A stretch of DNA of 28,794 nt from Desulfobacterales bacterium (GCA_036447975.1 JAZFVY010000162.1:1-28794); one strand, 5' to 3'; counted from the first letter of the stretch, positions 1-26,995 are shown. Translations and numbers: made by a program. Notes: generated from the sequence alone by a model not told the origin.

Positions 1-1187
1 ATCTCCATGATCTGGCGGCCGCGGAACTTGCCCCGCATAATGACGTAGGCCAGCAGAGTTCCGACAATGGCTCCTACCAATCCTGCTCCCAGTGAGACTT
101 TGATGCTGTTAATAATGGCGATATTCGATTGGGTATTGAGAATATGATCGGTCACAAAAGTATTATCCACTCCCACAATTTTAACAAATGATCCCAGCAC
201 AATAACGCCGAAACTTAATAGTACCATCATGGCAACCGAGAGACTGATGATCAAAAAGGGGATTTTAATGGCAGGTGCCATCGGTTTGGGTTCGGTAGCC
301 ATTCCTTTACCGGTGATTGTGGCATATCCTTTACCTTTTAACACGTATTTATGGAGAAAAAATATGAGGATACACGGGGTGATGAGAACCACCGAAAGGA
401 CGCTTGCCATATTGAAATCGCCTTCGCCGGTAATCATTAAATAGGTGTCCGGTGCCAGAAAAGGTGTTCGACCGCCCAGAATGGCAGGATTTCCGAATTC
501 AGCGATGGTCATTACGAAAACCAGAAGTGCGGCCTTCAAGAGCCCGGGGGCAGCCAGAGGAATCGTGATTGAACGAACAATCCGCACCTCAGAGGCTCCC
601 ATATCGCTGGCGGTTTCTTCCAGGCTGGGGTTTAACGAATTTAGGACATTTTCAATCATCATGAAAGACAGAGGTAAAAATGCCAGGCACTGGGCCATAA
701 TAACTCCGGTCCAGCCATAAATATTGAAATCCAAATTAAACAGGTTGTTGATTAAACCGTTCCTACCCAAAAGGGTGATCGAAGAAATTGCAAAGATGTA
801 AGGCGGAGCTGCCAGAGGAAGCAATGCAACAATCTTCAAAGGTTTTCTAAGCCGCAGGGGACCACGTGTGGTCAGGTAGGCAAAACAGAAACCGACGATT
901 ACCAAAATCACCATGGTAACTGTTCCCAAAATGAGGGTGTTAATTAGGGACCAGTAGTAAAAATTATAGCTGAAAAACTCGACGTAAAAATCAAAGGTAA
1001 ATCCTTCATCGCCCCAAAAGCTTTTGATCAGGACAGTTGCAATCGGATAGATAAGGAAGATGGCCAAAAGGGCAAAAAGGCCGCCGGCAAAAATATTCAC
1101 CAGTTTGGCATTGAGAAATGCGCGGACTTTATACCACAAACTTCTAGCAGGCACTGGACCTATTACCACTTCGGCCATCTTTACCAT
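1..1187 (-). CDS. ABC transporter permease (FbpB / 2-AEP-type), 3' end runs off the window
   Basis: Hand translation from ATG at 1187 (RBS AGGAGA): MVKMAEVVIGPVPARSLWYKVRAFLNAKLVNIFAGGLFALLAIFLIYPIATVLIKSFWG... It has multiple TM segments, the motif LLPLAAPPYIFA and the EAA loop NPSLEETASDMGASEVRIVRSITIPLAAPG. It is absent from the ORF track because there is no stop in the window. Confidence 0.9.
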   Translation of the reverse strand, partial: MVKMAEVVIGPVPARSLWYKVRAFLNAKLVNIFAGGLFALLAIFLIYPIATVLIKSFWGDEGFTFDFYVEFFSYNFYYWSLINTLILGTVTMVILVIVGFCFAYLTTRGPLRLRKPLKIVALLPLAAPPYIFAISSITLLGRNGLINNLFNLDFNIYGWTGVIMAQCLAFLPLSFMMIENVLNSLNPSLEETASDMGASEVRIVRSITIPLAAPGLLKAALLVFVMTIAEFGNPAILGGRTPFLAPDTYLMITGEGDFNMASVLSVVLITPCILIFFLHKYVLKGKGYATITGKGMATEPKPMAPAIKIPFLIISLSVAMMVLLSFGVIVLGSFVKIVGVDNTFVTDHILNTQSNIAIINSIKVSLGAGLVGAIVGTLLAYVIMRGKFRGRQIME

Positions 1188-1212
1188 ATCTCCTATGCTC
1201 TTTTAACCGGTA

Positions 1213-2286
1213 TTATTGTTTTTGCTTTTTGGCCGCTTCGGCCGCTTTTTTCTCTTTTTCGTCACCAACTCTCTTGGCTTTGGCAGTTTCCTTCATCATG
1301 AACTTGATTTTCCAAGTTTTGATAATTTTGCTGCGGTTCTTGACGGCCCATCCGTGGTCGAGTTTGATGTAAGTCGGTTTAGCCGCGCCATAAAGGGCGC
1401 TGGCAATGCCCGGACGAGGTGGAAAGTATCCAAAAGAAGCAAGGAATTCACTGAATTGCTGAGTGCCAAAATAGTCCATAATCTTCTTGGACAGTTCAAG
1501 TTTCTTGGTCCCTTTGAGAATAACCGTATAGTTGCCCTCGTAACCGATACCCTCAACAGGGATTGTCCACTCGAGAGGATAGCCCTGTTGAATCCGGTTT
1601 AGGACATTCTCATCGGCAGTGATTCCCAGCAAATATTCGCCTCTGCCAACAAGATCGGTAGGGGCATTTCCGCTTTTGGTATAGAAGGCCATGTTCTGGT
1701 CAAGATCTTCAAGGAACTTCCAGCCTTCTTTTTCGCCGTAAAGCTGCAGAAAAGAATAGTTGAGCATAAAAGCGGTTCCCGACGTTCTGGGTGAAGGGGC
1801 AACGATTTGTCCCTTCCATTTGGGATCCAGCAGTTCCTTCCAGCTCATTGGCATGCCCCATCCTTTTTCGGCCAGTTTCTTTTTATTGCCCACCAGGACA
1901 AACGAAAAGGTCCCCAGGGCATACCAGCAACCATCTGGATCTTTGAACACAGGATCGATGTCTCCCCATGAGGGGGCTTGAAAGCACTCATAAATCCCCT
2001 GTTTCTTTCCGATGATCGCTTGGGCAGCTCCGTAGGAAATGACCATGTCGGCATTGAAATTTGGCTTTTCAGTCTGAACCCTGGCCCAACACTCTCCCCA
2101 GGAGAGGGTGATGTGTTTAATTTCGATTCCCAGGTTCTCTTCAACGTTCTTGGCGATGGCCTCATTCACCTCCCGGGAATACCCCATGTAGGCACTGATC
2201 GATTCCTTTGCCTGAAGCCCACTGGAAGCAATGCCAAATGTCAGAACCAACGCTAAAGCTGCAATGATAAAAAGTCTCTTTTTCAT
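1213..2286 (-). CDS. ABC transporter substrate-binding protein (Fe3+/thiamine/2-aminoethylphosphonate class)
   Basis: Sec-type signal peptide and the class motifs SWKELLDPKWKGQIVAPSPRTSGTA and GRGEYLLGI. Directly upstream of the permease. Substrate is inferred from context only. Confidence 0.88.
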   Translation of the reverse strand: MKKRLFIIAALALVLTFGIASSGLQAKESISAYMGYSREVNEAIAKNVEENLGIEIKHITLSWGECWARVQTEKPNFNADMVISYGAAQAIIGKKQGIYECFQAPSWGDIDPVFKDPDGCWYALGTFSFVLVGNKKKLAEKGWGMPMSWKELLDPKWKGQIVAPSPRTSGTAFMLNYSFLQLYGEKEGWKFLEDLDQNMAFYTKSGNAPTDLVGRGEYLLGITADENVLNRIQQGYPLEWTIPVEGIGYEGNYTVILKGTKKLELSKKIMDYFGTQQFSEFLASFGYFPPRPGIASALYGAAKPTYIKLDHGWAVKNRSKIIKTWKIKFMMKETAKAKRVGDEKEKKAAEAAKKQKQ

Positions 2287-2449
2287 CAGGTACCTCCTAT
2301 AATCAAGATTGTTTAACGGTTAATGACCTGAAACAAGGTCAGGCTTCCGTATTGGATGGAAGATCTATTTAGGTCGATATCACCCCCTTTCTTTTAAATT
2401 TGGTTATTGCTTGACGAAAGAGTAACTGATCTGAAGAATATATCTATAT

Positions 2450-2494
2450 ATAAGTCAAACTAAAAAAATCATACTATTAATAATATAAAGTTAT
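2450..2494 (-). promoter_or_regulatory. LysR-type box plus -35-like element for the ABC operon
   Basis: Minus strand ATAACtttatATTAT (2480-2494), 21 bp spacer, then TTGACTTAT (2450-2458). The spacer is one base shorter than in the other six copies. Confidence 0.6.
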
Positions 2495-2506
2495 TTGTGG
2501 ATTCGA

Positions 2507-3553
2507 TCACCGCACCATGTTTACTGGGTATTTTCCGAATCTTCTTGTCGCATCAATCATAGCCAAAAAATTTTCAGGCTTCACGCTTGAATGGATGCTG
2601 TTGCTGGAGGAAAGAATGTGGCCACCGCCTGGAGATGCCGTCGATATACACCTTTCCACTGCTTTGGTTACCTGGTCGGGAGTTCCGTTGGTCAGGAGAT
2701 TCCCGCAGTCTATGTTGCCGATGATGCAAACACTGCTTCCATACATTTTCTTGATCTTTTGAATGTCCATCCCTGCGATGGGGTCAATTGGATTGATTCC
2801 GTCTATCCCTGTTTCTATGATCATGTCCAAGATCTTCATGAGATTACCGTCACTATGTTTTATACAGTATGCACCCATTTCATGGACAACGTCAACTATC
2901 TTTTTTAGCCCAGGAAGGACAAATTCCTTGAAATGTTTTGGGGAAATCATCGGGCCGGTATTATAGGCGTAATCATCTCCAAACATCACTATCTCGGCCC
3001 CAGCTTTAATGGCCTTTTTAACAACCTCTATTTCATAACTCAGGGCCATTTCTGTGATCTCATGAGCAAATTTCGGATTCATTATATAATCGAGAAAAAG
3101 ATTCTCTGTTCCCCTGAGATACCTCGGATTGCTCAGGGCATCACGATTCTCCCAAATAATTGCTTTTTCCCCCTTGAACCTTTGAACTAGTTCGAGAAAA
3201 GGACCAAGAACATCAGGGTCTTCGGGGTCTGGAGGAATATATGACTTTAGATCCTCTTCGGACTCGATGATCCCTTCAACGGGGTATGCAATGGCTTCAC
3301 CGGTATAAACCCTGGTAATTCCCCATTTATCCTTGAATTTATACCCCGGTTGAACATCCCCATCATGACCCGACAATGTATGCTCATATCCCAAGGCGAC
3401 ACCATCCATCCCTATTTTCTCTAAGAAGTCAAAATAAGAACAGCCTGGATAGATGGCATTTCTTACTTTTGGATCGATACTCCACTCCAACATCGGAACC
3501 CGATCAGGTTCTCTCCGCTCAAGGGATACAAAGATCAGATCTCGTGAATTCAT
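2507..3553 (-). CDS. Uroporphyrinogen decarboxylase-like / methylcobalamide methyltransferase-family protein
   Basis: Motifs EPDRVP, DKWG, FGDDYA...GPMISP..FKEF, KHSDGN, IIGNID and PGGGHILSSSNSIH; 348 aa; RBS AAAGGAG. It lacks the HxC zinc motif of methanogen MtaA/MtbA. Confidence 0.85.
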   Translation of the reverse strand: MNSRDLIFVSLERREPDRVPMLEWSIDPKVRNAIYPGCSYFDFLEKIGMDGVALGYEHTLSGHDGDVQPGYKFKDKWGITRVYTGEAIAYPVEGIIESEEDLKSYIPPDPEDPDVLGPFLELVQRFKGEKAIIWENRDALSNPRYLRGTENLFLDYIMNPKFAHEITEMALSYEIEVVKKAIKAGAEIVMFGDDYAYNTGPMISPKHFKEFVLPGLKKIVDVVHEMGAYCIKHSDGNLMKILDMIIETGIDGINPIDPIAGMDIQKIKKMYGSSVCIIGNIDCGNLLTNGTPDQVTKAVERCISTASPGGGHILSSSNSIHSSVKPENFLAMIDATRRFGKYPVNMVR

Positions 3554-3788
3554 TATAGACTCCTTTGGATTTAGTTTCGTAAAAAGGCCTATCTGAATGT
3601 TTTCCTACAACTTCTTGCCAAGCTCGCTTGTCAGTGTCAGCGATGGTAATCGTCTGAAAACTAGTAATTCTGCGTGTGCCGCGCATACATTTATCGATTA
3701 AAGGATAAGCACCTTACCACCTCAATGTTCGTTCCTCCTCGAAATGGTGCTCGAATCTTTTTTGGACAAAGGTGATATAATTTAATAA

Positions 3789-3834
3789 ATAAGTCAAAAT
3801 AATTAATATTATATTTTTAATGATAAATTGTTAT
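3789..3834 (-). promoter_or_regulatory. LysR-type box plus -35-like element for the URO-D-like gene
   Basis: Minus strand ATAACaatttATCAT (3820-3834), 22 bp spacer, then TTGACTTAT (3789-3797). Confidence 0.65.
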
Positions 3835-4125
3835 AATATTGATCGATCGGGTTTGTTATAAATTATGCTGATAATACCCGAATTTTACTTGTTCTTAAAA
3901 ATATGTTCCGATTGAGTCGTTTCGTTCATATTTTAATAAGCCGCCGGATGATTTAGTTTATGTCGGGAAGCTGTCTGAATAAATTAGAGCGCATTAAAGA
4001 GAACATTTTCAAAGTGATTCAATTTGGAGAATAAAGTCATGTTGCCACACGATATATTTAAAGCCATAGATAGGCCCCAGCAGTAATAGCAGCCAATTGG
4101 CTTTCTGCTTTTAAAATGAAGCACT

Positions 4126-4767
4126 CTATTTTCTTGCAATGAGCATTCTTGCCTGTTTGACAGCTTCTGCGGCATCCTTCCCATAGCCGTCAGCACCAAT
4201 TTCTTCTGCAAATCTTGCGTCAATAGGCGCACCCCCAACCATAACTTTAACACTTTTTCGCAATCCATTATCCTTTAAAGCCTCGATCACATTTTCAATC
4301 TCAGGCATCGTTGTTGTTAACAATGCGGATAATCCAAGGATGTCAGGCTTAATCTCTTTTATTTTTTGGATCAATTTTTCAACAGTGAGGTCTACACCCA
4401 AATCGATTACAGCGTACCCTGCCCCTTCCAACATAATAATAACAAGGTTCTTGCCGATATCGTGCAAGTCACCTTTGACCGTACACATAATGATCGTGCC
4501 GTTTGCTTCAGTCTCTTCAGGTTTCAAGAGAGGCTTAATGAGAGATAGACCCTTTTTCATGGTAATGCCTGAAGCAAGCATCTCTGGTATGTATATCTCA
4601 TTGTCTACAAATTTCTGGCCAACAATATCCATCGCGGCAATCATGGCATTGTTTATTATTGCATTCAGGTTTGTGCCTTCATTGATCGATGCCTTGACCA
4701 AACTCTCTATCTCTTTATGCTTTCCACTGACAACTGCCTCTTTAATATCCCCTATATTATTACTCAT
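4126..4767 (-). CDS. Corrinoid (B12-binding) protein, MttC/MtbC/MetH-cap type
   Basis: N-terminal cap domain (AMIAAMDIVGQKF..NEIYIPEML), B12 motif TVKGDLHDIGKNLV (DxHxxG), LGLSALLTTT and VMVGGAP. Confidence 0.95.
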   Translation of the reverse strand: MSNNIGDIKEAVVSGKHKEIESLVKASINEGTNLNAIINNAMIAAMDIVGQKFVDNEIYIPEMLASGITMKKGLSLIKPLLKPEETEANGTIIMCTVKGDLHDIGKNLVIIMLEGAGYAVIDLGVDLTVEKLIQKIKEIKPDILGLSALLTTTMPEIENVIEALKDNGLRKSVKVMVGGAPIDARFAEEIGADGYGKDAAEAVKQARMLIARK

Positions 4768-4923
4768 TGCCTTTATCCTTTCTCGATATAATGCTAATAT
4801 CCTTCATGGAAGGCCAAAACAATTATCTGTCAAATTAATTATAACAAATCGGAGAGAGATTCAATTTGCTGGTCCAACTCCTTCCATTTCGGCATGAGCC
4901 CAACGCAATCGTCACGGGAAAGT

Positions 4924-6099
4924 TCATGCTCCATAAGCAGCTATATCCTCGATTTTTTTATGTATTATGATGCCGCGTTCGGCAAGTTCTGTGAATACCG
5001 CTGAGGGTTCAAAAGCCAGTTCAGGAGCCACGACACCAGACCCGCGAAACTGGCCATGGGCGATCATCTGGGCACCGATACTCATGGGGATGCCCACACA
5101 GCGTGTATAAGCACGCAGCTTTTTCCATCCTTTTACTGAGCCGTCCGAGGCGGGATGGGTGTGGGTGAGGATATGCCGGTACTTTTTCCCCTCACAACTG
5201 CCGGTAACCTCCACGTGCAGCGCGTAACCGTAAAGATCGGTAGTCTGCCCCTCTTTGGATTGCAGAAGATGGCCAGCGATGGCATCCATGATCCTCACCT
5301 GGGTGCCGTCCACTTCGATTTTGTCGTTACGCATAAAACCCCAGTCATATAGGGTGCGAATCAGCACCATGTTTTTGGGCGGCCAGGTACCGCGCACTTC
5401 GATCAGTTGAATCTGTTTATCTGCCAGCGACTTTGGAAGGGTCATGGTTTCAGCATGAGGAATGATGTACTGGGTATGGGTTCCGTATGGAAGCGGCAGT
5501 TCGATTTCTCTGGGACGAGCAAAGGGCGGCACCTGAACAAATTTTCCGTTTTCGTATACCACGCGAGAGGGCAGATCGGGATCGTACTCAATCCGTGTGG
5601 TCTCGGCGATTGCCGGTGAAAAAGCCACCGGCCGGAAGGCACCGTGACTGATACGAATGGTATCCACCGTCTCCAACTGATCGGCGACATGCTTGGCCAT
5701 CAGGTTCGTAATTCCAGGGGTCATCCCCATGCCGGGGACACAGACTTTGCCTTTGTCTGAAAATTGGCGATCAAATTCCCATTCCGCCCCACAACCGTTG
5801 ATGTTGATACCATGTACACCGGCGGCAGCAATACAGGCAGTGGAACGGTCATTGAGGGAGATGGTGGTACCGTCCATGACCAAATTATAGTCCTTAAAAC
5901 TGGCCACCGCCGCCTGATGATCGTTAACATCGATCTTGAGAAAATCCACGCGGGGGTCATCAAGCCACTTTACCACCTCCTGGCCCGCATCTTCATTATA
6001 GTCGGCGATAGTAATTTTCTCGAAATCTGAATATTCCACAAGATCATAGGCCGATTCTCGGCTGATTTTACCAGCGGCCCCTAAACATAAAATTTTCAT
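4924..6099 (-). CDS. Saccharopine dehydrogenase-family NAD(P)-dependent oxidoreductase
   Basis: Rossmann start MKILCLGAAGKIS...ITIAD, plus PGMGMTPGITN, HAETMTLP and a C-terminal TRCVGIPMSIGAQM..G...G.GV.APE; 391 aa. Confidence 0.88.
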   Translation of the reverse strand: MKILCLGAAGKISRESAYDLVEYSDFEKITIADYNEDAGQEVVKWLDDPRVDFLKIDVNDHQAAVASFKDYNLVMDGTTISLNDRSTACIAAAGVHGININGCGAEWEFDRQFSDKGKVCVPGMGMTPGITNLMAKHVADQLETVDTIRISHGAFRPVAFSPAIAETTRIEYDPDLPSRVVYENGKFVQVPPFARPREIELPLPYGTHTQYIIPHAETMTLPKSLADKQIQLIEVRGTWPPKNMVLIRTLYDWGFMRNDKIEVDGTQVRIMDAIAGHLLQSKEGQTTDLYGYALHVEVTGSCEGKKYRHILTHTHPASDGSVKGWKKLRAYTRCVGIPMSIGAQMIAHGQFRGSGVVAPELAFEPSAVFTELAERGIIIHKKIEDIAAYGA

Positions 6100-6134
6100 T
6101 CAATTCCCCTTTCGTTTTACAGAGAAATATTTAA

Positions 6135-6179
6135 TTGTATATACAAATGTCTTTATACTTCTTCGTATAACCAAGTCAA
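6135..6179 (-). promoter_or_regulatory. Promoter of the dehydrogenase-corrinoid operon with a GntR/HutC-type palindromic operator
   Basis: Minus strand -35 TTGACT (6174-6179), 16 bp spacer, -10 TATAAA (6152-6157). A perfect palindrome TTGTATATACAA lies at 6135-6146, just downstream. Confidence 0.7.
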
Positions 6180-6309
6180 GAATTATTTTAAGCATCACGT
6201 ATTCATGCTATGAAATTGCTATAATATCTTAAATATCAAATTGTTAATATAAATATAGAAAGATAAAATATGTAAAAGAAAAGAAACTATTACATGAATC
6301 AAACAACCA

Positions 6310-6338
6310 TTGACTTTGTATATATAATTAAGTATATG
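6310..6338 (+). promoter_or_regulatory. Promoter of the GntR gene with a second operator copy
   Basis: TTGACT (6310-6315), then TTGTATATATAA (6316-6327, one mismatch to the palindrome), then a weak -10 TATATG (6333-6338). Confidence 0.55.
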
Positions 6339-6431
6339 AATGTGAGATGATTTTTTAGGATTGATACATCAGGGTTCATCCGCCATCATGAATATTACAT
6401 AGAAAGCAAGTAACGTGAACGGGGGGAATAT

Positions 6432-7187
6432 ATGGGTTCAAATTATCGCAGGAAAATTCCAAAACATGTACAGATCTATCAGTGGTTGCGTGCTATGATC
6501 GCCAAGGGGGAAATCAAACGTGGCGACAAACTCCCCACCGAGATCGAACTGTCCCATATGTTTGCGGTTAACCGCATGACAGTACGCAAGGCTATGGATT
6601 CTCTGGTGTTTGATGCGATGGTCATCCGCCGGCCGGGTAAAGGAACTTTTCTGACCTCCGAGAAACCCAAGGATTTAATCTATACCCTGAAAAACATCAC
6701 CAGTTTTGGTAATGACATGCAAAGCGTCGGGATACAGCCTACCTATCAGGCCGTTGAGGTGAAAGTAATCCAGGCGGACGGCGAAGTAAGCAAGATGTTG
6801 AAACTGAAAAATGACAAGCGGGCCATTTATTCCCTGCGAGTGTTGCATGCCAACGATAAACCGGTACTCATCGAGAAAAGCTATCTTCCTTATTTCAAAT
6901 TCAAAGACATTCTAGATATGGATTTTAATACAACTCTTTATCAGATTATCACGGAAAAGTTCGGTATCGCATTGGATCATGCTACTCAGTGTTTGACGGC
7001 GGAGTTCCCAGGAGAAGAAGAGACCAGAATATTCGGCCTGCCCGAGCCCTGTCCCTGCATGAAGATGGAAACTGTGGTGTACGATCCCCACAACTCTCCG
7101 GTGGAGGCCCTTTTCGCCTACTATCGTGGAGATAAGTATAAATTCAAATTCAAGGCGGGGCACTATATTCGCCATTCGAACCAGTAA
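6432..7187 (+). CDS. GntR family transcriptional regulator, HutC/UTRA subfamily (PhnF/PhnR-like)
   Basis: wHTH IPKHVQIYQWL...GDKLPTEIELSHMFAVNRMTVRKA...RRPGKGTF and a UTRA C-terminus (LRVLHANDKPVLIEKSY, YRGDKYKF). Confidence 0.95.
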   Translation: MGSNYRRKIPKHVQIYQWLRAMIAKGEIKRGDKLPTEIELSHMFAVNRMTVRKAMDSLVFDAMVIRRPGKGTFLTSEKPKDLIYTLKNITSFGNDMQSVGIQPTYQAVEVKVIQADGEVSKMLKLKNDKRAIYSLRVLHANDKPVLIEKSYLPYFKFKDILDMDFNTTLYQIITEKFGIALDHATQCLTAEFPGEEETRIFGLPEPCPCMKMETVVYDPHNSPVEALFAYYRGDKYKFKFKAGHYIRHSNQ

Positions 7188-7290
7188 CCCGACTAACTTG
7201 GAATTTACAAAATCTTTTCAGCCAGTTGGAACTGATGTGAGAAAATCAATATAAATATACCTACTTACTGTTTTGCTCCGCTCTCGTGGG

Positions 7291-8163: not shown

Positions 8164-8181
8164 ATATCTGATCCTCTTCGG

Positions 8182-9270: not shown

Positions 9271-9349
9271 GGTGTTTCTCCGGTTATTTTTCAGGCGAAA
9301 ACGTTTATTCTTTATAACTTAGCTAACAAACTTATTTCAAAGCCGGCTC

Positions 9350-10738: not shown

Positions 10739-10829
10739 TTAAGCCTCCTTTATATCTATATCCATAATCGAAAGAATGGCATGATTTTCTTATATTTCCG
10801 TCGCATTAAGGATAATTTAGGAGGAATAC

Positions 10830-10875
10830 CTAAATCAAGCTAAATTATTTAATAGATTTTATAACCGCAGGTGAT
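10830..10875 (-). promoter_or_regulatory. LysR-type box plus -35-like element for the pbfA-like/phnA/EamA operon
   Basis: Minus strand ATCACctgcgGTTAT (10861-10875), 22 bp spacer, then TTGATTTAG (10830-10838). Confidence 0.6.
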
Positions 10876-10902
10876 ACGAATTTTTCCGATGTTGACCTGG
10901 AG

Positions 10903-16089: not shown

Positions 16090-16135
16090 ATAAATCAAAT
16101 TAAAAAATATCAGTTTTTCCATAACAACAGGTTAT
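16090..16135 (-). promoter_or_regulatory. LysR-type box plus -35-like element for the mtmB-like operon, abutting the LysR start
   Basis: Minus strand ATAACctgttGTTAT (16121-16135), 22 bp spacer, then TTGATTTAT (16090-16098). The box ends 5 bp before the LysR GTG. Confidence 0.75.
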
Positions 16136-16140
16136 GATTT

Positions 16141-18767: not shown

Positions 18768-18781
18768 TACCTATTGTCTAC

Positions 18782-19726: not shown

Positions 19727-20140
19727 TGGTAACTCCTTTCTCGACATTCAGGGTCACTTTAAAGGTTTTTTTCTGTCTTTTAAATTTACACGTTTGGGAT
19801 TCACTTCCTCCTAAAAATTCGATACGTCTTATCAGTTGGTATCCTGTTCCTGAACAAAATGAACATGGCATCCAAAAACTGTACTGTGAGATTTGTTATT
19901 ATTCTGCCGAACTTTTTGAAAAATTACAAGGTCAAAAAAAATGATCATCCCCAAAGGAAAAATGATTTAATTGTTTTCTTGAAAGCGTAGATGAAAATAT
20001 ATGCTAATTGAATTGAGTAAAGAGAGCTTTAGTGGCAAAGCACAACAACCCATTACTGTATATCATGGTAATGAGATAGTAATGGGTTATATTTTTTCTG
20101 AGAGTTCACGCTTTGTTCAATGAGGCGGGCTAGATCACAA

Positions 20141-20530
20141 CTATATTTTCAAATCCCACAAACCGCGATGGCCGCGTGACGGTAAAGGATCGTGAATACA
20201 CTTAATATCCGTCAGCTTCCAGGCATACCAGCCCGGCTTAAAGTCGCCAAAAGCATACTCTGGATAGCACGGACAATTCTCACTCGTAATTACCCGGCAA
20301 TCCACCAAGCTGCATGTTGCTACGATAACACCTTGAGGCAGTTCATCATAAGCCAAACCGGCAGATGCAAGAACACTGCGGTAATATGGGTCATCTACCG
20401 GCACCGCTTTTTTGGCCGCATGGATTGCCAAAGGCCCCCGGTACCTTGTGGACCATGATTTCGTTTCAATTGTCTTTGCTCCTATGGACACCAAAGAGGC
20501 CCAGGGTTGATATAACGTGATAGCTTTCAT
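20141..20530 (-). CDS. ASCH (PUA-like) domain protein
   Basis: MKAITLYQPWASLV..GAKTIETKSW.T.YRGPLAIHAAK, P.GVIVA...L.D and RGHRGLW. Confidence 0.93.
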   Translation of the reverse strand: MKAITLYQPWASLVSIGAKTIETKSWSTRYRGPLAIHAAKKAVPVDDPYYRSVLASAGLAYDELPQGVIVATCSLVDCRVITSENCPCYPEYAFGDFKPGWYAWKLTDIKCIHDPLPSRGHRGLWDLKI

Positions 20531-20536
20531 TAGGAT

Positions 20537-21169
20537 CTATTTGCGGGTCAAAATTGTTCTTCCCGGAAATGCTTTACTGATCAGTTCTGCGGCGATTTCC
20601 TTATCACAGACTCCAAAATCATCACTTGTTCCCGAAACAATTATATTGCCGTTAGCCTTAAACTGAACAAAGGCCCCGCCCGCCGGAGTGACGTGAGAAT
20701 TGACAAACCCCAGGTCCCGAATTTCCTCTTCGGTGTTTTTTAATATCTCGCGATGCCAGTCGTCTCCTGAGCGAAGGCAAACCATTCCCTCGATCACACC
20801 ACCTGAAAATGAAACCAGAAGAATCTTCCCCCTGTACCCTTCAGGCAGTTCGACTAGAGGAATCAATTTCTCCAGGTCAAGCCCATGGACTCGAAAAATC
20901 TTCAGTGCCCGAATCCGGCGGCTTAATCGATTTGCCGACCTTATTTCGCCTTTAGAGTGATCATAACGGGTTTTTTCCTTCAAAGAATCAATAATGGGCT
21001 CGAAGTCTGATTCCTGAAGCGACACCTGACATTCATTCATGGCAGTCATTGCCAATTCCAGCTTGACGGCCCTCAAGTAAGCAAGCACATGTTCTTTGCC
21101 CTCATGAACCTCTCGGCATATTGATGCGATATCACTACTTTCAGTATGATTCATTTGTTGCCACGCCAC
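20537..21169 (-). CDS. Hypothetical protein with a C-terminal Janus/Ocnus (phosphohistidine phosphatase PHPT1-like) domain
   Basis: The C-terminal 100 aa align by eye with PHPT1: GKILLV / LRSGDDWHREI / AGGAFV / IIVSGTSDDFG / IAAELISKAFP. The N-terminal half is helical and unrecognised. Confidence 0.6.
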   Translation of the reverse strand: MAWQQMNHTESSDIASICREVHEGKEHVLAYLRAVKLELAMTAMNECQVSLQESDFEPIIDSLKEKTRYDHSKGEIRSANRLSRRIRALKIFRVHGLDLEKLIPLVELPEGYRGKILLVSFSGGVIEGMVCLRSGDDWHREILKNTEEEIRDLGFVNSHVTPAGGAFVQFKANGNIIVSGTSDDFGVCDKEIAAELISKAFPGRTILTRK

Positions 21170-21248
21170 TTTTCGATTTTAATTCAAGCCGTGATCCGTC
21201 AACGAACCAGACTGACGGGTTTTCTGCTCCCCGGGTGTAAAAGACTGC

Positions 21249-21974
21249 CTAAAAGGTTTTCAAATCAGTACGAATCAGGCCGCGCAGTTGGTTCAGACTG
21301 GTTATGACAGGTGCTGTTGTTTCCACCTCCGGCCATGAGCGGCGTACTGAATAGTGTTTTATCCAGATGGGACGAATACCGGCATCACTTGCCCCGCAAA
21401 TGTCAATGCGCCAGTCGTCACCCACGAAAACCGCTTCAGCAGGGCCAACCCCAAGTCTTTCCAGACATAAACGAAAAGGAGCGGCGTCGGGTTTGGGCGG
21501 CACACCCGATTCACCGGCCACGATAATGACCTTGAAAAACCTTTCGAGTTCCGGGAACGAACTGATACGGTGGTTATCTGAAGCCCTTTGACCCTGGGTG
21601 TTGGTAATCAGGGCCAGCTGATATTCAACGGCAAGATCCCCCAACACCTGCACCGCTTCGGGAAATGGAGTCGTATGTGCCTTAACCGTATCCCAGTACC
21701 CGTTTTCCCACTTTTCAGTGCACCCCAAGTCGGGTTTACGGTTGAAATGAAGATAAACCGCCTGCCAGATGGCTTTCCGTGATAATATGGACTTTTCGTG
21801 ACATTCTCTTCGAATCCTTCGATAGCTTGAAATAAAGGTTTCCCATGATGTGAGGCTGAGATTCGAATAGATCTTAATCTGCGCCTCTTTTTCTGCGGCA
21901 CGGAACCCGTTGGCCGAATTCGCCAAGGTTTGACCAAAATCAAAAAGTACGGCCTTTATCACGGCATCATCCAA
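21249..21974 (-). CDS. HAD-superfamily hydrolase, subfamily IA
   Basis: Motif I VLFDFGQTL, motif II LITNTQG, motif III PKPD and motif IV FVGDDWRIDI.GA..AGI. Confidence 0.92.
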   Translation of the reverse strand: MDDAVIKAVLFDFGQTLANSANGFRAAEKEAQIKIYSNLSLTSWETFISSYRRIRRECHEKSILSRKAIWQAVYLHFNRKPDLGCTEKWENGYWDTVKAHTTPFPEAVQVLGDLAVEYQLALITNTQGQRASDNHRISSFPELERFFKVIIVAGESGVPPKPDAAPFRLCLERLGVGPAEAVFVGDDWRIDICGASDAGIRPIWIKHYSVRRSWPEVETTAPVITSLNQLRGLIRTDLKTF

Positions 21975-22061
21975 CTTTATTGACGATTTTGGATTGAAAA
22001 TTGTCTGTCTTGGGGTAAAGCGTGCAACGGTTATTCTTCAACAGACAATCTTCAATTCTGA

Positions 22062-23453
22062 TCAATCCCTTCCCCATTTCTTCAGATAATCTCCAAAAAG
22101 CTCCTCGTCTGTAGATATATGCTCTGGGATGGGGACAGAAAGCCAGGTATAGTTTAAAAAATGCCGCCAGTTGATGTTATCCGTGGTCATGTTGCCGGCC
22201 CAGGTGCCGCCGCCTAGCGTATCGGTGACCGGTTGGCCGTTAAACCAGCTTCCGCTGTTGGCCATGGCATGAGGCATGTTGCAGTTGACGCGGCCTACAT
22301 TGGCTTTTATGGAAAGTTCTATCTGGCGATCTTCTCTCGTGCTGTGGAGGGATGCGGAATGACCTTCCCCTGAATATTTGTGCATCTGTTTCATGCGTTC
22401 GATCATCTCGCTGAAATCCGTCCATTTCCACACGGTCAGAACCGGACTGATTTTCTCGCCGGAGAATTGGTCTTCAGGCCCGGGTTTTGTCCCGAGAACC
22501 ATGAGGAACCGCGTATTTTCGGGAACGTCAAGGCCCGCGTTTTTGGCAATAAAGGGTGCTGGTTTGGCCACGATATCACGGTTGAGCATGTTCCCGTCCG
22601 GCCACATGTAATTTCCAAGCTTTTCCCGCTCCTGCGTACTGCACATGTAGCCACCTTCGGCCTCAAACAGGCCGATCATTTTGTCAAAGACAGATTCTTC
22701 AATGGCAACGGCGTTTTCCGAAGAACAGGATGCGGAGTTGTTAGCGCACTTGGACATCACGATTTTTTTGGCTGCCCCGGCATGATCGGCGGTTTCATCA
22801 ATGATCGATACCACGTTTCCTGCGCTGACCGTTTGTGCCGGCTTGCCCGCAGCATAAACCACCTTCACCAGCGCCGCGCCGCCCGTGGCCACGGCAAAAT
22901 CACAATTGGCCATCAATTCGGATGTCTTGGAGTGGCTTGTATTTTTGATACACTGCATCAGGTCCACCGGCGCATCGATCTTTTTGAGCGCCTTTCTGGC
23001 ATGCTGAACAGTAAGATAGGAACTCCCCTGGGTTCTTGGGTGGGGGGTTACAATCATGGCGTTTCTTGTTTTCAAAGTGCTGAGCCCGAGACAACAGATG
23101 GTCGATTCGGGGTTGGTACAGGGCACCACGTTGGCAATGACGCCTATCGGTTTGGCAAATATTTTCAGCCCCTTTTCTTCGTCTACCTTGATAAGGCCGC
23201 AGGTCTTAACACCGATTTGGTCCCGCATGGTGCCGCGTGTCTTGCTTTGTATCTTTGCCACCTTGTCTTCGTAAACACCGATTCCGGATTCATCAACGGC
23301 CAGTCCGGCCAGAGCCTTGGCCGTCTCGGGTTTCTGAAGTTCCCAGCCCACTGCGGCCACCATCTCGTCGACTTTCTCCTGGGGCCAGAATTCAATTACT
23401 TCAAAAGCTTTTCTGGCTTTTTTATACATTTCCTGAATGTTGTCTTCTTCCAT
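22062..23453 (-). CDS. CoA-acylating aldehyde dehydrogenase, SauS (sulfoacetaldehyde dehydrogenase)-like clade
   Basis: QEKVDEMVAAVGW, DKVAK...KTRG, PIGVIA...PCTNP, ATGG, GNV.SIIDE, catalytic SCSSEN, FSGEKISPVL, GHS.SLHS and the SauS-like tail GTWAGN..TDNINWRHFLN.T....PI.E......LFGDY. RBS GGAGG. Confidence 0.85.
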   Translation of the reverse strand: MEEDNIQEMYKKARKAFEVIEFWPQEKVDEMVAAVGWELQKPETAKALAGLAVDESGIGVYEDKVAKIQSKTRGTMRDQIGVKTCGLIKVDEEKGLKIFAKPIGVIANVVPCTNPESTICCLGLSTLKTRNAMIVTPHPRTQGSSYLTVQHARKALKKIDAPVDLMQCIKNTSHSKTSELMANCDFAVATGGAALVKVVYAAGKPAQTVSAGNVVSIIDETADHAGAAKKIVMSKCANNSASCSSENAVAIEESVFDKMIGLFEAEGGYMCSTQEREKLGNYMWPDGNMLNRDIVAKPAPFIAKNAGLDVPENTRFLMVLGTKPGPEDQFSGEKISPVLTVWKWTDFSEMIERMKQMHKYSGEGHSASLHSTREDRQIELSIKANVGRVNCNMPHAMANSGSWFNGQPVTDTLGGGTWAGNMTTDNINWRHFLNYTWLSVPIPEHISTDEELFGDYLKKWGRD

Positions 23454-23637
23454 AACCTTTTTTCTCCTCCATTTTGTAAAAAATTATATGAGTTAAGAAA
23501 ATTAATTGTGAATCAGGGCCGGCAATCAAGGGCATTTCGTCGACAATAATTGTTTTTGAGACCTGTAACCGGAACAAAGGTCCTCCGTTTACAGTGGTCT
23601 TAACAGTTGTTCAACCTTTTTTGGGGTAAAAGTACCT

Positions 23638-24774
23638 CTATTTTTTAATGGGAATCGTGTAGCCCATCTCTTTGAAGGCATCTTTTGCCACAACAAAAAA
23701 GTCCTCAATATCCTTGTAGGTGATCTGGCCCAAATTGCATAACCTGAACGTTTTGACCCCGAACATTTTACCCGGATAGATGGTAAACCCTCGATCATAA
23801 CAATAGTCATGAAGCTTAAAAAAATCGAATTTATCATCTTCAGGCGCCTTGACCGTTACGACAAGACGCCCCTGAATCTTCTTGTCGATGACGGATTCCA
23901 GACCGATCTCTTTCAAGCCTTTATGAATTGCCTCCCAACATTTAGTCAAACGGTCCCAGCGGGCCTGTTCGCCTTCTTCCCAATACTCCTCTATGGCTTG
24001 CCGTAAAGCATAGATGGTCTGGACCGGCGGGGTAAAATGCATCTCTCCCACTCTTTCAAGAAAATCGTATTGCATGTAAAGGTTACAGTAGTAGGAACGT
24101 GTGGGATAATCTTTGGACTTTTTTATTTCTTCTATGTTGCCGACCAGCCATGAAGCACCGGTCATGGCGGCAAGTCCTTTCTGGGCGGAAGACATCAGAA
24201 AATCGATATTCTCCTTTTCAATATCAATAGGCATTAACCCGTAAGTAGAGATGGTGTCGACAATGAAAACACATCCGTTGTCATGGGCGATTTTACCGAT
24301 CTCTCTGACCGGATTTAAGACACCGGTACCGGTTTCATGATGAACCGTTGCCACCACGACGATGTCTTTATCTTTTTGCAATGTTTCTTGGACGACATCC
24401 AAATCGGGCAGACCTGTGGTTGGAAATTCAAGGTTCACACAGGGGATATGGTAATAATCAGCGATTTCCGCCATCCTGGCCGAATAGGCGCCGTTGTTTA
24501 CAATACATATTTTTTTATTTTCAGGAACAAGCGAATTGACACAAACATCCTGTATGATCGTGCCGGACCCGGTAAAGATGACTGCCGTATATTTTTCGGG
24601 ATCAGCGTTGCCAATCTTGACCAGCTCTTTGCGAATATCGATCATTATATCGACAAACTCTTGCTCTCTGGGGCAAATATCCGGCACGACCTGGGCATAT
24701 TTTACCGAATCGCTGGTTGTCGCCGGACCGGGGTTCAACAAAATGTTTCGCTTAACAGGTTTGACCACCTCCAT
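23638..24774 (-). CDS. phnW: 2-aminoethylphosphonate-pyruvate transaminase (class V PLP)
   Basis: LLNPGPATTS.SVK.AQVVPDICPRE.EF, GSGT, NNGAY..RM, VHHETGTG.LNP, VDTIS, SSAQKG (PLP lysine), FTPP and FTIYPGK. The true start is ATG 24774 (RBS GAGGAGG); the tracked ORF is 31 codons too long. Confidence 0.92.
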   Translation of the reverse strand: MEVVKPVKRNILLNPGPATTSDSVKYAQVVPDICPREQEFVDIMIDIRKELVKIGNADPEKYTAVIFTGSGTIIQDVCVNSLVPENKKICIVNNGAYSARMAEIADYYHIPCVNLEFPTTGLPDLDVVQETLQKDKDIVVVATVHHETGTGVLNPVREIGKIAHDNGCVFIVDTISTYGLMPIDIEKENIDFLMSSAQKGLAAMTGASWLVGNIEEIKKSKDYPTRSYYCNLYMQYDFLERVGEMHFTPPVQTIYALRQAIEEYWEEGEQARWDRLTKCWEAIHKGLKEIGLESVIDKKIQGRLVVTVKAPEDDKFDFFKLHDYCYDRGFTIYPGKMFGVKTFRLCNLGQITYKDIEDFFVVAKDAFKEMGYTIPIKK

Positions 24775-24817
24775 TTTAATTCCTCCTCTAAATTCAAATT
24801 CAAGCAAAACCGACAGG

Positions 24818-25864
24818 CTACATCCTTCCCACTTTCTTGATTCCCGACTTTTTACTGGGATCTTCAACTTCTTCTACAATGCCAAACCCGCTGCCGTAGA
24901 GTTTCTGTCTTTCGGTAAAGGCCTTCTTCCATTCATCAGGCGTTCGAGTGAGTGCCGGTTTTGCATTTTTATTCCGATCTTTCATTGGAGGAACCTGCCT
25001 GTCGGAAGGTCCGTCGTAATCTTCTTTAGGTGTTAATTCCTGTCCCTGCCGCGTATACGCTCCTCTTTCAATTTCTTCGATATAATGGGCTCCGGCAGCA
25101 AAAGAGCGGGTAACCGCCAGGATGACCCAAGTCGCCTCCGGGGTAAAACCCAGATCCATCATGGTGGCACCGGTGGCGCCGAGCATGTCTAGATCCACGG
25201 GTTCGGCGCTTGCTCTTTGGGCCGCCTTGACGATTGCTTTAGTGAATGCGATGTATTTGCCTGCCAGGCCGAGCTTTTCCGCACGTGCAAACATGCGTTT
25301 GGCTGCCTGGTCTTTTAGCATCAGACTGGAAACCCCCAGGGCTTCATCATTCAAGTTCTCCTTGACCAATAGTTCGGCCGCTTCTTCAAGGGACATGCTT
25401 TCTTCTTCAGCATTTTTTAAATACTTCTCGAGTCTGTTTCCAAATGCCGAGTACGCTCCGTAGGCATGTCCGAAGGCCAATATGGATGCGCCGCAAGCCT
25501 GAGTTAAAAAGGTTTTAGATCTGGCAACGATCCTTGACATTACCGCCGGCATGGACAGTCCGTCTTCCAAGGCCAGAATCATAACGTAATTCAACATCTT
25601 TTCTTCTTCGATTAATGGTATTCTGGCCTGTAAATCCACGAAAAGAACGTCAACCATACCATAGCCTTCTTCCATGAGTTCAGTGGTATCGAATCCCCGG
25701 GCAACGATCCGGTGAACGTTCTTGTAAGCGACTTCGGAAACCCACTGAAAAGGCGCCCTTGTGGTGTCAAGAGATACAGTACCGTACTCTCTTTTACTAT
25801 AGTCATAAGGCATTTTATCACTATCTAAATTCCCAATGCCTTTTTTATCACCTATATCACCCAT
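24818..25864 (-). CDS. Citryl-CoA lyase / citrate-synthase-fold protein (copy B, degenerate active site)
   Basis: WVSEV...IVARGF...L, LEDG, FGHAYG, DMLGA.GA.MMDLGF, TRSF..GAH.IEE and YDGPSDR.VP. The start overlaps the upstream paralogue by 13 nt. Confidence 0.85.
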   Translation of the reverse strand: MGDIGDKKGIGNLDSDKMPYDYSKREYGTVSLDTTRAPFQWVSEVAYKNVHRIVARGFDTTELMEEGYGMVDVLFVDLQARIPLIEEEKMLNYVMILALEDGLSMPAVMSRIVARSKTFLTQACGASILAFGHAYGAYSAFGNRLEKYLKNAEEESMSLEEAAELLVKENLNDEALGVSSLMLKDQAAKRMFARAEKLGLAGKYIAFTKAIVKAAQRASAEPVDLDMLGATGATMMDLGFTPEATWVILAVTRSFAAGAHYIEEIERGAYTRQGQELTPKEDYDGPSDRQVPPMKDRNKNAKPALTRTPDEWKKAFTERQKLYGSGFGIVEEVEDPSKKSGIKKVGRM

Positions 25865-26748
25865 TTTTTGTATTCTCCTTCCTCTTTTTGTTTCATGGCG
25901 TATTCCTGGCGTTCTTCCTGCTTCGGTACGACCCGGTCTTCGGGTCCGATATATTTTATCATGGAAAGATCAATCATCTGCACCATGGGCTCATTTCGCG
26001 ATGCCCCCCAGGCACGCCCTTTTTTCATGGTGTACAATGCATGGGTGGCACAACTGAAGCCACGGGTGACACTGCCGATACACCAGCCTGCATTCGGTGA
26101 AAAGCCGATCTCCATTAACGCGGTGTTACCTGCCCCCACCACGTTCACACCCACATAGGATTTTCCCTCTCTCTTTCGCCTGGCGTGAAAGTGCTTTTCG
26201 AGTGCTCTTTGGAACTCCAGATAGACACCTTCCAGCTCTAATTCTTCCTGCTTAACATGAATCGGTTCGGCCCTGGGGTCGCTGTTGATGTGCTGCGGCT
26301 GTCCCATGCCCATTACCGGTTTTCCGGCATCCAAATATTCATCGACTAGAATTTTGGCTATTTCGTCGAGGGTTTTCCCCTCCTCATGCGCCTTCGCGAT
26401 GTATTTGTTGACCATGTATCCATGGGCGGCCCCTGGCCCATGAACACCGCCAAATGTCATAATTGATGCTGCCACGGCGCAGGGAAGATTCGGTCTTCCG
26501 GCACTGACTCCGATGGCACCCACCGCCGAAGGCGACATCGAGTGCTCCAAAAAGACACCCATCTCGTACTTGAGCATTTTTTCTTCCTTTTCAGCGGGAA
26601 TTCGATTTTGGAAAAGGACAAAGAGTGCGTCATAAAACGAATAACCTTCCTCTGCCAGTTCACTCAGATTGTAACCTCTCATGACAGTCTTTTCTTCTGT
26701 CTTGTAGGAAATCGACGTCTTTCTTCGGAACAATGGTTCTCTGTCCAT
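25852..26748 (-). CDS. Citryl-CoA lyase / citrate-synthase-fold protein (copy A)
   Basis: KTSIS...VMRGY.L.EL...SF.DA, LEHSMSPS, FGGVHGPG, GMGQP...DPR, VNVVGA, MEIGF, TRG...H and Y.GPEDR.VP. RBS AGGAGG. Confidence 0.88.
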   Translation of the reverse strand: MDREPLFRRKTSISYKTEEKTVMRGYNLSELAEEGYSFYDALFVLFQNRIPAEKEEKMLKYEMGVFLEHSMSPSAVGAIGVSAGRPNLPCAVAASIMTFGGVHGPGAAHGYMVNKYIAKAHEEGKTLDEIAKILVDEYLDAGKPVMGMGQPQHINSDPRAEPIHVKQEELELEGVYLEFQRALEKHFHARRKREGKSYVGVNVVGAGNTALMEIGFSPNAGWCIGSVTRGFSCATHALYTMKKGRAWGASRNEPMVQMIDLSMIKYIGPEDRVVPKQEERQEYAMKQKEEGEYKKWVI

Positions 26749-26949
26749 TATTTTCCTCCTGTTTTAAGTTATATAATAATTGTAGCCTAACTTTTCAATT
26801 TGTATGAATTTCGCAGAGCCTTTTGCGGCTCTCCAACCATTTGTTTCCAGGATTCGTGTCGTACCGTTAAATGCCTTTTATTCCGTAACTTAAGCCTAAA
26901 GCGGCTCTCTTTGAAATATTAATTTTAACAATTAATACCTAATAAAAAC

Positions 26950-26995
26950 ATAAGTCAAATTAATTAAAATTATAACTTGTATGATAATATGTTAT
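26950..26995 (-). promoter_or_regulatory. LysR-type box plus -35-like element for the cclA-cclB-phnW operon
   Basis: Minus strand ATAACatattATCAT (26981-26995), 22 bp spacer, then TTGACTTAT (26950-26958). Confidence 0.7.

Follow-up and report, generated by a model that had tools for sequence, protein, structure and literature searches.

We describe here a 28,794-nt stretch of DNA from a Desulfobacterales bacterium (GCA_036447975.1, JAZFVY010000162.1:1-28794; "the window" denotes this whole stretch), in which genes for the use of 2-aminoethylphosphonate (AEP) lie together with a CoA-acylating aldehyde dehydrogenase (ALDH) and three proteins of the citrate-synthase fold, Ccl1, Ccl2 and Ccl3, that lack the catalytic aspartate of that fold. 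The stretch is the longest contig of a Desulfobacteraceae-like metagenome-assembled genome (MAG; 525 contigs, 83% complete), whose RpoB is 85% identical to that of an uncultured Desulfobacteraceae MAG and about 60% identical to that of other Desulfobacterota. A listing of open reading frames (ORFs) combined with Pfam and NCBIfam scans gives three modules, mostly on the minus strand (Table 1). Module A (3-12384) holds an importer, an MtaA/URO-D gene with a corrinoid protein, a saccharopine-dehydrogenase-like gene, a GntR/UTRA regulator, an EamA transporter, a PhnA-like gene and a divergently transcribed pair of PbfA genes; Module B (13366-17046) consists of a truncated pterin-binding methyltransferase, a corrinoid protein, an MtmB-family gene and a LysR regulator; and Module C (18201-26748) is a single 8.5-kb run of nine genes encoding Ccl1, Ccl2, PhnW, the acylating ALDH, a HAD hydrolase, a Janus/Ocnus-like protein, an ASCH protein, Ccl3 and a NUDIX hydrolase. 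All genes listed in a preliminary description of this sequence are present, although its label phnA holds only in part, the gene being PhnA-like and below threshold; it overlooked the conserved HAD hydrolase, a protein whose Asp+2 residue is lost and which is a rival candidate for the step that breaks the carbon-phosphorus (C-P) bond. We suggest, at a probability of roughly 0.55, that phosphonoacetaldehyde is converted here to phosphonoacetyl-CoA, whose C-P bond the Ccl proteins cut to give acetyl-CoA and phosphate.

Table 1. Genes of the window, with position, strand and the basis of each assignment.
Position	Strand	Feature	Basis
3-2286	-	PhnU2-like permease (cut by the window end) and PhnS2-like binding protein, AEP-type ABC importer	below NCBIfam cut-offs
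2507-3553	-	MtaA/URO-D-family methyltransferase	profile scans
4126-4767	-	Second corrinoid protein	TIGR02370 186.9 bits, under 215.3; both B12-binding Pfam domains present
4924-6099	-	Saccharopine-dehydrogenase-like oxidoreductase	Pfam/NCBIfam scans
6432-7187	+	GntR/UTRA regulator, similar to PhnR/PhnF	Pfam/NCBIfam scans
7291-8163	-	EamA transporter, like the phosphonate-associated membrane protein family	phn_DUF6, below cut-off
8182-9270	-	PhnA-like hydrolase of the alkaline-phosphatase superfamily	TIGR02335 206 bits vs 407.55; PDB 1ei6/3szy
9350-10738	-	PbfA family, second and more divergent copy	NF049939 655 bits vs 525
11026-12384	+	PbfA	NF049939 716 bits vs 525
13366-13788	-	Pterin-binding (methyl-corrinoid:tetrahydrofolate) methyltransferase, truncated	profile positions 2-130 of 244 left
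13855-14511	-	Corrinoid protein, cognate to the MtmB-like gene	TIGR02370 220.7 bits vs 215.3, above cut-off
14544-15944	-	MtmB-family methyltransferase, pyrrolysine-free, full-length	PF05369 300 bits
16141-17046	+	LysR-type regulator	profile scans
18201-18767	-	NUDIX hydrolase (NudE-like), final gene of the operon	profile scans
18782-19747	-	Ccl3, citryl-CoA-lyase fold, single-gene, 321 aa	PF00285
20141-20530	-	ASCH-domain protein	Pfam scan
20537-21169	-	Janus/Ocnus protein (PHPT1-like phosphohistidine phosphatase family)	profile scans
21249-21974	-	HAD-IA hydrolase	profile scans, motif I D-F-G-Q-T
22062-23453	-	CoA-acylating aldehyde dehydrogenase, SucD/SauS type	SauS model NF047625 475 bits vs 600
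23638-24867	-	PhnW (AEP:pyruvate aminotransferase)	TIGR03301 427.9 bits vs 360.8
24818-25864	-	Ccl2, citryl-CoA-lyase-fold paralogue, 348 aa	fold/profile match; overlaps Ccl1 by 13 nt
25852-26748	-	Ccl1, citryl-CoA-lyase fold, 298 aa	PF00285

The entry genes are the most conventional part of the island. PhnW passes two NCBIfam equivalog cut-offs, that of TIGR03301 and that of NF010006 (298.2 vs 296 bits), and both genes for the (R)-hydroxy-AEP ammonia-lyase PbfA score above their model, their specificity being assigned from the family only. The importer genes are no more than PhnU2- and PhnS2-like, both falling below cut-off; a second copy of the importer is found in the same MAG (contig C245:1566-3713), its PhnS2-like protein 90% and its PhnU2-like permease 79% identical to those of the window. 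Judged by family membership, AEP-type phosphonates would be imported and then turned into phosphonoacetaldehyde by PhnW (from AEP) and PbfA (from hydroxy-AEP). The PhnA-like protein does not reach the PhnA cut-off, yet it is homologous to the PhnA structures 1ei6 (E 4.5e-54) and 3szy (about 5e-54), and its TN-NN, TAK-KL and DHGM motifs, including the nucleophile and metal motifs, align with theirs. From these alignments we read it as PhnA-like only, probably serving a local side branch that takes phosphonoacetate or some similar phosphonate.

The ALDH is of the acylating type (AdhE-N/EutE/SucD). Its SCSSEN and GEGHS motifs align to Cys242 and His364-Thr365 of SucD from Clostridium kluyveri (CkSucD, PDB 8cei), which is its closest solved structure, and its best NCBIfam match is SauS, whose equivalog cut-off it misses. 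In CkSucD, Lys70 and Ser243 hold the distal carboxylate of the acyl group, and propionaldehyde dehydrogenase has Leu/Val at these positions (PMC10249356). The aligned residues of the ALDH are Lys71 and Ser244, the latter directly after the catalytic Cys, and both are invariant in 29/29 orthologues, which occur in 29 loci at 67-77% identity. As the Lys and Ser for a distal anion are invariant and the best family is SauS, the alignments make it very probable that the substrate is an anionic substituted aldehyde and not acetaldehyde. In a phosphonate gene context this aldehyde would be phosphonoacetaldehyde, and the enzyme a putative acylating phosphonoacetaldehyde dehydrogenase.

The Ccl proteins carry the fold of citrate synthase and citryl-CoA lyase with an altered active site, and none of them has the complete catalytic triad (H274, H320 and D375 in citrate synthase numbering). 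In the alignments the equivalent of Asp375 is Val in Ccl1, Leu in Ccl2 and Ala in Ccl3. Ccl1 keeps the H274-equivalent His, within HGPGA, and the Arg residues that correspond to R329 and R401, and has Gln for H320 within an invariant GQPQH motif; Ccl2 has none of the three catalytic residues (H274 to Tyr, H320 to Ser, D375 to Leu); and Ccl3 retains both His residues, within an HHPQH motif. These patterns are conserved in 21 orthologues of Ccl1, 24 of Ccl2 and 3 of Ccl3. Pfam PF00285 recognises Ccl1 and Ccl3 only, and all NCBIfam citryl-CoA lyase cut-offs are missed, including those of the PRK06224 subfamily (Ccl3 185 vs 245 bits, Ccl2 91 vs 212). The Ccl1 family is narrow: there are 27 representatives at E≤1e-30 among the 1.84 billion searched, and orthologues with 73-86% identity lie in 20 loci. 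The predicted Ccl1-Ccl2 complex has an interface score (ipSAE) of 0.73, against 0.00 for the best control. Among 78 solved complexes 51 attain this mark, and among 108 mismatched pairs 2 do; the value may however be inflated by the known dimers of citrate synthase and citryl-CoA lyase. According to this model Ccl1 and Ccl2 likely form a heterodimer in which Ccl2 is the non-catalytic partner. Ccl1 would supply the active site of a putative C-P hydrolase for phosphonoacetyl-CoA, and Ccl3 is probably isofunctional with the Ccl1/Ccl2 pair.

The arrangement is not confined to the window. With the ALDH as census probe, orthologues of 67-77% identity were found in 27 other species genomes, most of them MAGs, and Ccl1-Ccl2 (or Ccl3) lies directly upstream of the ALDH in these carriers wherever the extent of the contig permits. 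The Ccl1-Ccl2-ALDH(-HAD) core is shared at 67-86% amino acid identity by MAGs of at least five phyla, including Planctomycetota, Chloroflexota, Thermodesulfobacteriota and Nitrospirota; the MAG labels include Pirellulales, Sedimentisphaerales, Anaerolineales, Thermodesulfobacteriota, Desulfohalobiaceae and Nitrospirota. Since RpoB identity across comparable distances is only about 55-60%, the gene comparison indicates that the cassette is laterally mobile and moves as a unit, and as the core recurs in at least 27 other genomes its co-location in the window is not due to chance. PhnW scores above cut-off in 17 of the 27 carrier genomes and lies inside the operon in the window and in loci L026 and L037; the class-V transaminases that adjoin the cassette in other loci are canonical PhnW (462-495 bits, TIGR02326/NF010006), and PbfA orthologues are present in many cassette loci. 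Other recurrent neighbours are GntR or LysR regulators, EamA, saccharopine-dehydrogenase-like, URO-D, NUDIX and Ocnus genes, and MtmB-like pairs with a corrinoid gene; a PhnA-like gene is among them only once, directly after the HAD gene in L029. The test by gene neighbourhood that the preliminary description had proposed thus came out in its favour, with Ccl-like and acylating ALDH genes recurring beside bona fide PhnW or PbfA in many MAGs of anaerobes. One closed Nitrospirota MAG chromosome (L034, 8574-11739) was considered as a way to tell the essential genes from the rest and set aside as a decayed, uninformative remnant; it keeps a 29-amino-acid fragment of PhnW, the last 56 amino acids of Ccl1 and the first 102 of the HAD protein, with Ccl2 and the ALDH intact.

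The enzymes known to break C-P bonds are missing from this genome. The whole-genome search for phnX, phnY and the C-P lyase that had likewise been proposed earlier found no PhnX, PhnY, PhnJ or phosphoenolpyruvate (PEP) mutase over cut-off in the 83%-complete MAG, and neither PhnX nor PhnY lies in the window. For PhnY (TIGR03250, cut-off 635.65) the best score in the genome was 313 bits, on another contig, and the ALDH of the window scored 24 bits; as a control, the PhnX model gave 311 bits for a true PhnX in a control genome. Neither PhnX, PhnA nor PhnJ was found above cut-off in any of the 27 carriers (0/27 each), the closest to PhnA being one PhnA-like protein at 203 bits. We have therefore rejected a C-P lyase route, as there is no PhnJ in the genome itself or in the carriers, and the same profile searches led us to reject PhnX as the explanation in these genomes.

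A second gene arrangement points to the same position in the route. Ccl3 homologues of 51-54% identity, with the same Asp-less HHxQH signature, lie within two canonical AEP operons (L132:6295-15487 and L133:6257-15567), in which PbfA and a divergent LysR gene are followed by CoA-transferase A and B, the Ccl-like gene, a non-acylating ALDH, PhnS2, an ABC ATPase, PhnU2 and PhnW, the PbfA, PhnS2, PhnU2 and PhnW proteins all scoring above curated cut-offs. Upstream in both loci are PbfA, a His_Phos_1 phosphatase and a GCS2-family ligase. Judging from gene content, there would thus be two enzyme sets that could each make an acyl-CoA from phosphonoacetaldehyde, namely an acylating ALDH, or an ordinary ALDH with a CoA-transferase. 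No known C-P hydrolase is found in the acylating-ALDH locus or in the CoA-transferase loci (neither PhnX nor PhnA in L132 and L133), and the Ccl-like protein is the sole unknown that the two architectures have in common. As both pair thioester-making enzymes with a Ccl-like protein, we argue that phosphonoacetyl-CoA is the substrate of the Ccl-like protein. A thioesterase would be futile in the company of a CoA-transferase, which speaks against that function. If the product of the Ccl-like protein is acetyl-CoA, this could serve as the CoA donor for the next round. A further variant is seen in Pirellulales, where two loci (L015:4795-11049 and L023:2535-6311) hold a Ccl3-ALDH pair with an HTH-cupin regulator, a pf00107 Zn-dehydrogenase and an MFS transporter, and contain no PhnW or HAD gene. 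PbfG, a recently described hydroxyethylphosphonate dehydrogenase of the pf00107 family, gives phosphonoacetaldehyde (PMC13576164), and by analogy these two loci may be a hydroxyethylphosphonate version of the system, with a third entry to phosphonoacetaldehyde.

The HAD hydrolase requires separate consideration. Its motif I reads D-F-G-Q-T, so that the general acid Asp+2 is lost (G in 17 of 19 HAD sequences, S in one and D in one), and the Mg, Lys and Asp motifs are kept; the cap is rich in Arg, several of which are invariant in the orthologue alignment. PhnX also lacks Asp+2, having Ala instead, and this loss is the only feature that the HAD protein shares with PhnX: it is not matched significantly by TIGR01422, the model for PhnX. 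A PhnX-like fold was considered and rejected, as a Foldseek search of the PDB with the confident predicted structure (pLDDT 92.5) returned sugar-phosphate phosphatases and dehalogenases (NANP/HDHD4, YfnB and haloacid dehalogenases) and no PhnX in the top 50. An orthologue, 50-60% identical and usually directly downstream of the ALDH, is present in 18 of the 27 carrier genomes. Since it is missing from the other nine and from both CoA-transferase loci, we read the HAD protein, from its sequence and distribution, as performing an accessory phosphoryl-transfer step or else as the main rival for the C-P hydrolase.

We read the window as a composite island by which a Desulfobacteraceae-like anaerobe of sediments would break down natural aminophosphonates. 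On the proposed route, which beyond family membership is inference at every step, phosphonoacetaldehyde, NAD(P)+ and CoA would be converted to phosphonoacetyl-CoA by the SucD/SauS-type ALDH. Phosphonoacetyl-CoA would resemble citryl-CoA with phosphorus in place of the oxaloacetate-derived carbon, and the Ccl1/Ccl2 heterodimer, as well as Ccl3, could bind it in the way that citryl-CoA lyase holds its own substrate. That lyase cleaves citryl-CoA at the alpha-carbon, and the acetyl-CoA enolate left behind is stabilised by the H274-equivalent His. The same His, kept in Ccl1 and Ccl3, would stabilise the acetyl-CoA enolate as leaving group here, while the kept Arg residues and the (G/H)QPQH/HHxQH motif would hold the phosphonate at the former oxaloacetate site. 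The C-P bond would then break, with either water or, in a first step, an enzyme His (the invariant His of QPQH) accepting the phosphoryl group, to give acetyl-CoA and phosphate. The loss of Asp375, whose task is to take up or give back the methyl proton, fits this scheme, as there is no such proton to abstract if the enolate arises by loss of the phosphoryl group. The HAD, PHPT1-like and NUDIX proteins would be accessory, and the PhnA-like protein a local side branch.

We raised our estimate for this core route to about 0.55 because of the anion-binding residues of the ALDH, the census of 27 genomes and the CoA-transferase architecture. The preliminary description had already proposed oxidation of phosphonoacetaldehyde to phosphonoacetyl-CoA, and this part is strengthened by the co-occurrence of the genes, the missing C-P enzymes, the ALDH residues and the CoA-transferase variant. 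Its alternative branch, in which phosphonoacetate is released for PhnA, does not hold as a general route, given a single PhnA-like gene among the 27 other carriers and the futility of a thioesterase beside a CoA-transferase. Several points weigh against our reading of the island. We know of no precedent for C-P cleavage by a citrate-synthase fold, and the HAD protein, with Asp+2 lost and an orthologue in 18 of 27 carriers, is a credible alternative. The net products equal those of PhnX plus acetaldehyde dehydrogenase, so that the advantage of the route is unclear. PhnX is rare in the phylum anyway (found in none of 121 sampled genomes), and for this reason its absence is weak evidence on its own. 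Sub-threshold PhnX-like HADs (97-116 bits) occur in 4 of the 27 carriers, two of them by their coordinates within loci L010 and L018, and PhnW was not found in 8 of the 27 carrier genomes, which are MAGs of unknown completeness. The possible inflation of the Ccl1-Ccl2 score and the incomplete methyl-transfer chain of the window, in which the pterin-binding methyltransferase is truncated, belong here as well. Finally, phosphonoacetyl-CoA is not a known metabolite; its sole mention in the literature, in a 2026 preprint on flavophos biosynthesis, is as a hypothetical product. The two PhnX-like HADs within cassette loci score 114-116 bits against a cut-off of 220 and lie at the end of L010 (G012:C74:13006-13629) and between PhnW and PbfA in L018 (G004:C22:25279-25902); some carriers may run a PhnX-type step in parallel.

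Could the HAD hydrolase itself break the C-P bond? It might do so as an analogue of PhnX, acting on phosphonoacetaldehyde and leaving the ALDH to convert acetaldehyde to acetyl-CoA, or it might act on phosphonoacetyl-CoA, and the Ccl proteins would in either case have another role, such as regulation or scaffolding. The near-universal loss of Asp+2 with retention of the Mg and Lys motifs, the same loss in PhnX, the position directly after the ALDH in most loci and the invariant Arg residues of the cap all speak for such a role. We nevertheless consider it unlikely, since there is no significant PhnX-model match and the nearest folds are not PhnX, no orthologue was found in 9 of the 27 carriers or in either CoA-transferase locus, the anion-binding residues of the ALDH are absent from acetaldehyde and propionaldehyde enzymes, and the most conserved genes, Ccl1 and Ccl2, would be left unexplained. 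A role of the cassette in the metabolism of another anionic aldehyde, such as sulfoacetaldehyde or the semialdehyde of malonate or succinate, with phosphonate genes merely co-located, would agree with SauS as best family and SucD as best PDB match, and with the lack of PhnW in 8 of 27 carriers and in the two Ccl3-type loci. It appears improbable to us, as the cassette is repeatedly embedded among PhnW, PbfA and PhnS2/PhnU2 genes over cut-off, sulfonate genes were not seen nearby, and an enolate leaving group chemically suits the release of an electrophilic phosphoryl group and not of sulfite.

Citrate synthase hydrolyses the thioester of citryl-CoA, using Asp375, and the Ccl proteins could likewise be thioesterases that free phosphonoacetate for cleavage by the PhnA-like protein, whose gene is in the window and directly after the HAD gene in L029. 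Against this stand the presence of a PhnA-like gene in only one of the 27 other carriers, the very loss of Asp375 in the Ccl proteins, and the futile cycle that would arise with the adjoining CoA-transferase in L132 and L133, and we give this explanation little credence. Least probable of all, to the point of near dismissal, is a biosynthetic cluster whose product would be a phosphonate, either a natural product or one displayed on the cell surface. Transaminases of the PhnW type and condensing enzymes that resemble citrate synthase do take part in phosphonate biosynthesis; the genome, on the other hand, has no PEP mutase, the window carries an importer, PbfA and GntR and LysR regulators of catabolic type, and the Ccl proteins are without the base needed for a condensation.

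Cleavage of phosphonoacetyl-CoA by the Ccl proteins could be extended to a broader proposal, in which the Asp-less citrate-synthase fold represents a new class of C-P-cleaving enzymes and, together with the MtmB-like and corrinoid proteins, completes an oxygen-free route for methylated aminophosphonates in sediments. In its boldest form the His of the QPQH/HxQH motif would become a phosphohistidine. Three phosphatase families accompany Ccl-like genes, namely HAD, the PHPT1-like Janus/Ocnus proteins and His_Phos_1 (in L132 and L133), and a phosphohistidine intermediate would explain why three such unrelated families travel with them. We regard this wider proposal as speculative and, taken as a whole, doubtful.

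The least secure part of the system is the capture of methyl groups. The MtmB-like protein belongs to the MtmB fold and family by PF05369 and departs from it in lacking pyrrolysine: position 202 is Met in the alignment to Methanosarcina MtmB (1l2q), and the gene has no internal stop or in-frame TAG. Its orthologues (65-81% identity) nearly always form a paralogue pair followed by a corrinoid protein. The tandem paralogues show identities of about 50% and 78% to the MtmB-like gene of the window (L040, L041, L043-L045, L047-L050), and the window holds only the second of them. In at least seven loci (L010, L018, L040, L042, L043, L046 and L049), MtmB-like and corrinoid genes lie less than 10 kb from genes for PhnW, PbfA or Ccl proteins. 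An intact 54% homologue of the truncated pterin-binding methyltransferase is present on contig C165 of the same MAG. N-methyl-AEP is common in nature and not usable by PhnW, and the FAD-dependent enzymes PbfB, PbfC and PbfD oxidise it (PMC10590968). The first and only characterised MtmB without pyrrolysine, MtqB, takes methyl groups from tetramethylammonium and choline (Kashyap et al. 2026, PMC13044021). By analogy we tentatively suggest, while leaning towards doubt, that the MtmB-like and corrinoid proteins demethylate methylated AEPs so that PhnW can act. A corrinoid capture of methyl groups had been part of the preliminary description; the recurrent linkage of these genes to the phosphonate loci and the MtqB analogy speak for it, and the pterin-binding methyltransferase on which it would draw in the window is a truncated remnant.

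Some of the remaining genes recur as well. Janus/Ocnus homologues and a NUDIX gene are found in both L029 and L037, a URO-D gene adjoins the cassette in L037, and LysR genes with 53-55% identity to the window LysR flank it in L026 and L029. The saccharopine-dehydrogenase-like gene recurs by the cassette in L038 and by the MtmB-like genes in L046. The NUDIX hydrolase could possibly free phosphonate from nucleotide-linked forms, and the saccharopine-dehydrogenase-like enzyme is a candidate for NAD-dependent cleavage of N-alkylated aminophosphonates. Between the modules lie a frameshifted pdxJ remnant (12429-13381, plus strand; profile positions 17-136 of 234) and a glutamate dehydrogenase remnant with an internal deletion and a stop (17111-17875, minus strand), which together with the pterin-binding remnant look like the traces of a mosaic island, or else of assembly errors in the MAG contig. 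The tail of the stretch (27000-28794) is AT-rich, with 32% GC against 46% for the contig, and may be the edge of the island; its sole ORF (27122-27625) encodes a predicted membrane protein with no family match. Rfam and tRNA scans of the window gave no matches.

A large reservoir of organic phosphorus in the oceans and in sediments consists of phosphonates, and to our knowledge only a few ways of breaking the C-P bond have been described, namely PhnX, PhnA, PalA, oxygenases of the PhnY*/PhnZ type and C-P lyase. If the proposed route is true, it would extend this list by a new class of enzyme, establish phosphonoacetyl-CoA as a genuine metabolite, and explain how strict anaerobes of several phyla without known C-P enzymes could mineralise AEP while keeping its carbon as acetyl-CoA. 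The scaffold of citryl-CoA lyase would have been re-used for phosphoryl instead of carbon transfer. The pyrrolysine-free MtmB homologues could in turn gain a first bacterial function, as an anoxic answer to N-methyl-AEP, which aerobes meet with FAD oxidases. A literature search found no paper on this route in the sources covered, subscription journals being outside that coverage, and the papers of the Peracchi group on phosphonate gene context make no mention of citrate, citryl or acylating genes.

The system resembles known ones in each of its parts. Like MtqB, the MtmB-like protein belongs to the MtmB family but lacks pyrrolysine, and the gene for its cognate corrinoid protein is adjacent; unlike MtqB, which comes from Methanococcoides, it is bacterial and linked to phosphonate genes, and the two are likened by analogy. 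The window system would overcome the same block that N-methyl-AEP poses for PhnW as do PbfB, PbfC and PbfD, but it has no FAD enzyme, and its candidates, a corrinoid methyltransferase and a saccharopine-dehydrogenase-like NAD enzyme, are compatible with anoxia. The ALDH belongs to the same acylating subfamily as SauS (acylating sulfoacetaldehyde dehydrogenase) and SucD (succinyl-CoA reductase), with the same Cys-Ser pair and distal-anion Lys, whereas it scores under the SauS equivalog cut-off and its surroundings are phosphonate and not sulfonate or succinate genes. With the PhnW-PhnX and PhnW-PhnY-PhnA pathways and their PbfA extension (Zangelmi et al. 2021, PMC8154272; 2023, PMC10590968) the system shares the entry to phosphonoacetaldehyde by way of importer, PhnW and PbfA, and the net chemistry of these hydrolytic pathways, which yields a C2 unit and phosphate. 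It differs from them in having no PhnX or PhnY, in a CoA-acylating oxidation in place of one to the free acid, and in the proposed cleavage of a thioester by a citrate-synthase fold instead of a HAD or alkaline-phosphatase fold. The Ccl proteins have the fold and length of citryl-CoA lyase (Hydrogenobacter thermophilus Ccl, PDB 6hxp) and of the CCL module of ATP-citrate lyase (E 5e-19 to 1.5e-29), and share with citryl-CoA lyase the enolate-stabilising His, the two oxaloacetate-binding Arg residues and the dimeric architecture. They differ from it in that D375 is absent in all three and H320 replaced in Ccl1 and Ccl2, in the new conserved QPQH/HxQH motif, and in the pairing of Ccl1 with Ccl2, in which one subunit is degenerate.

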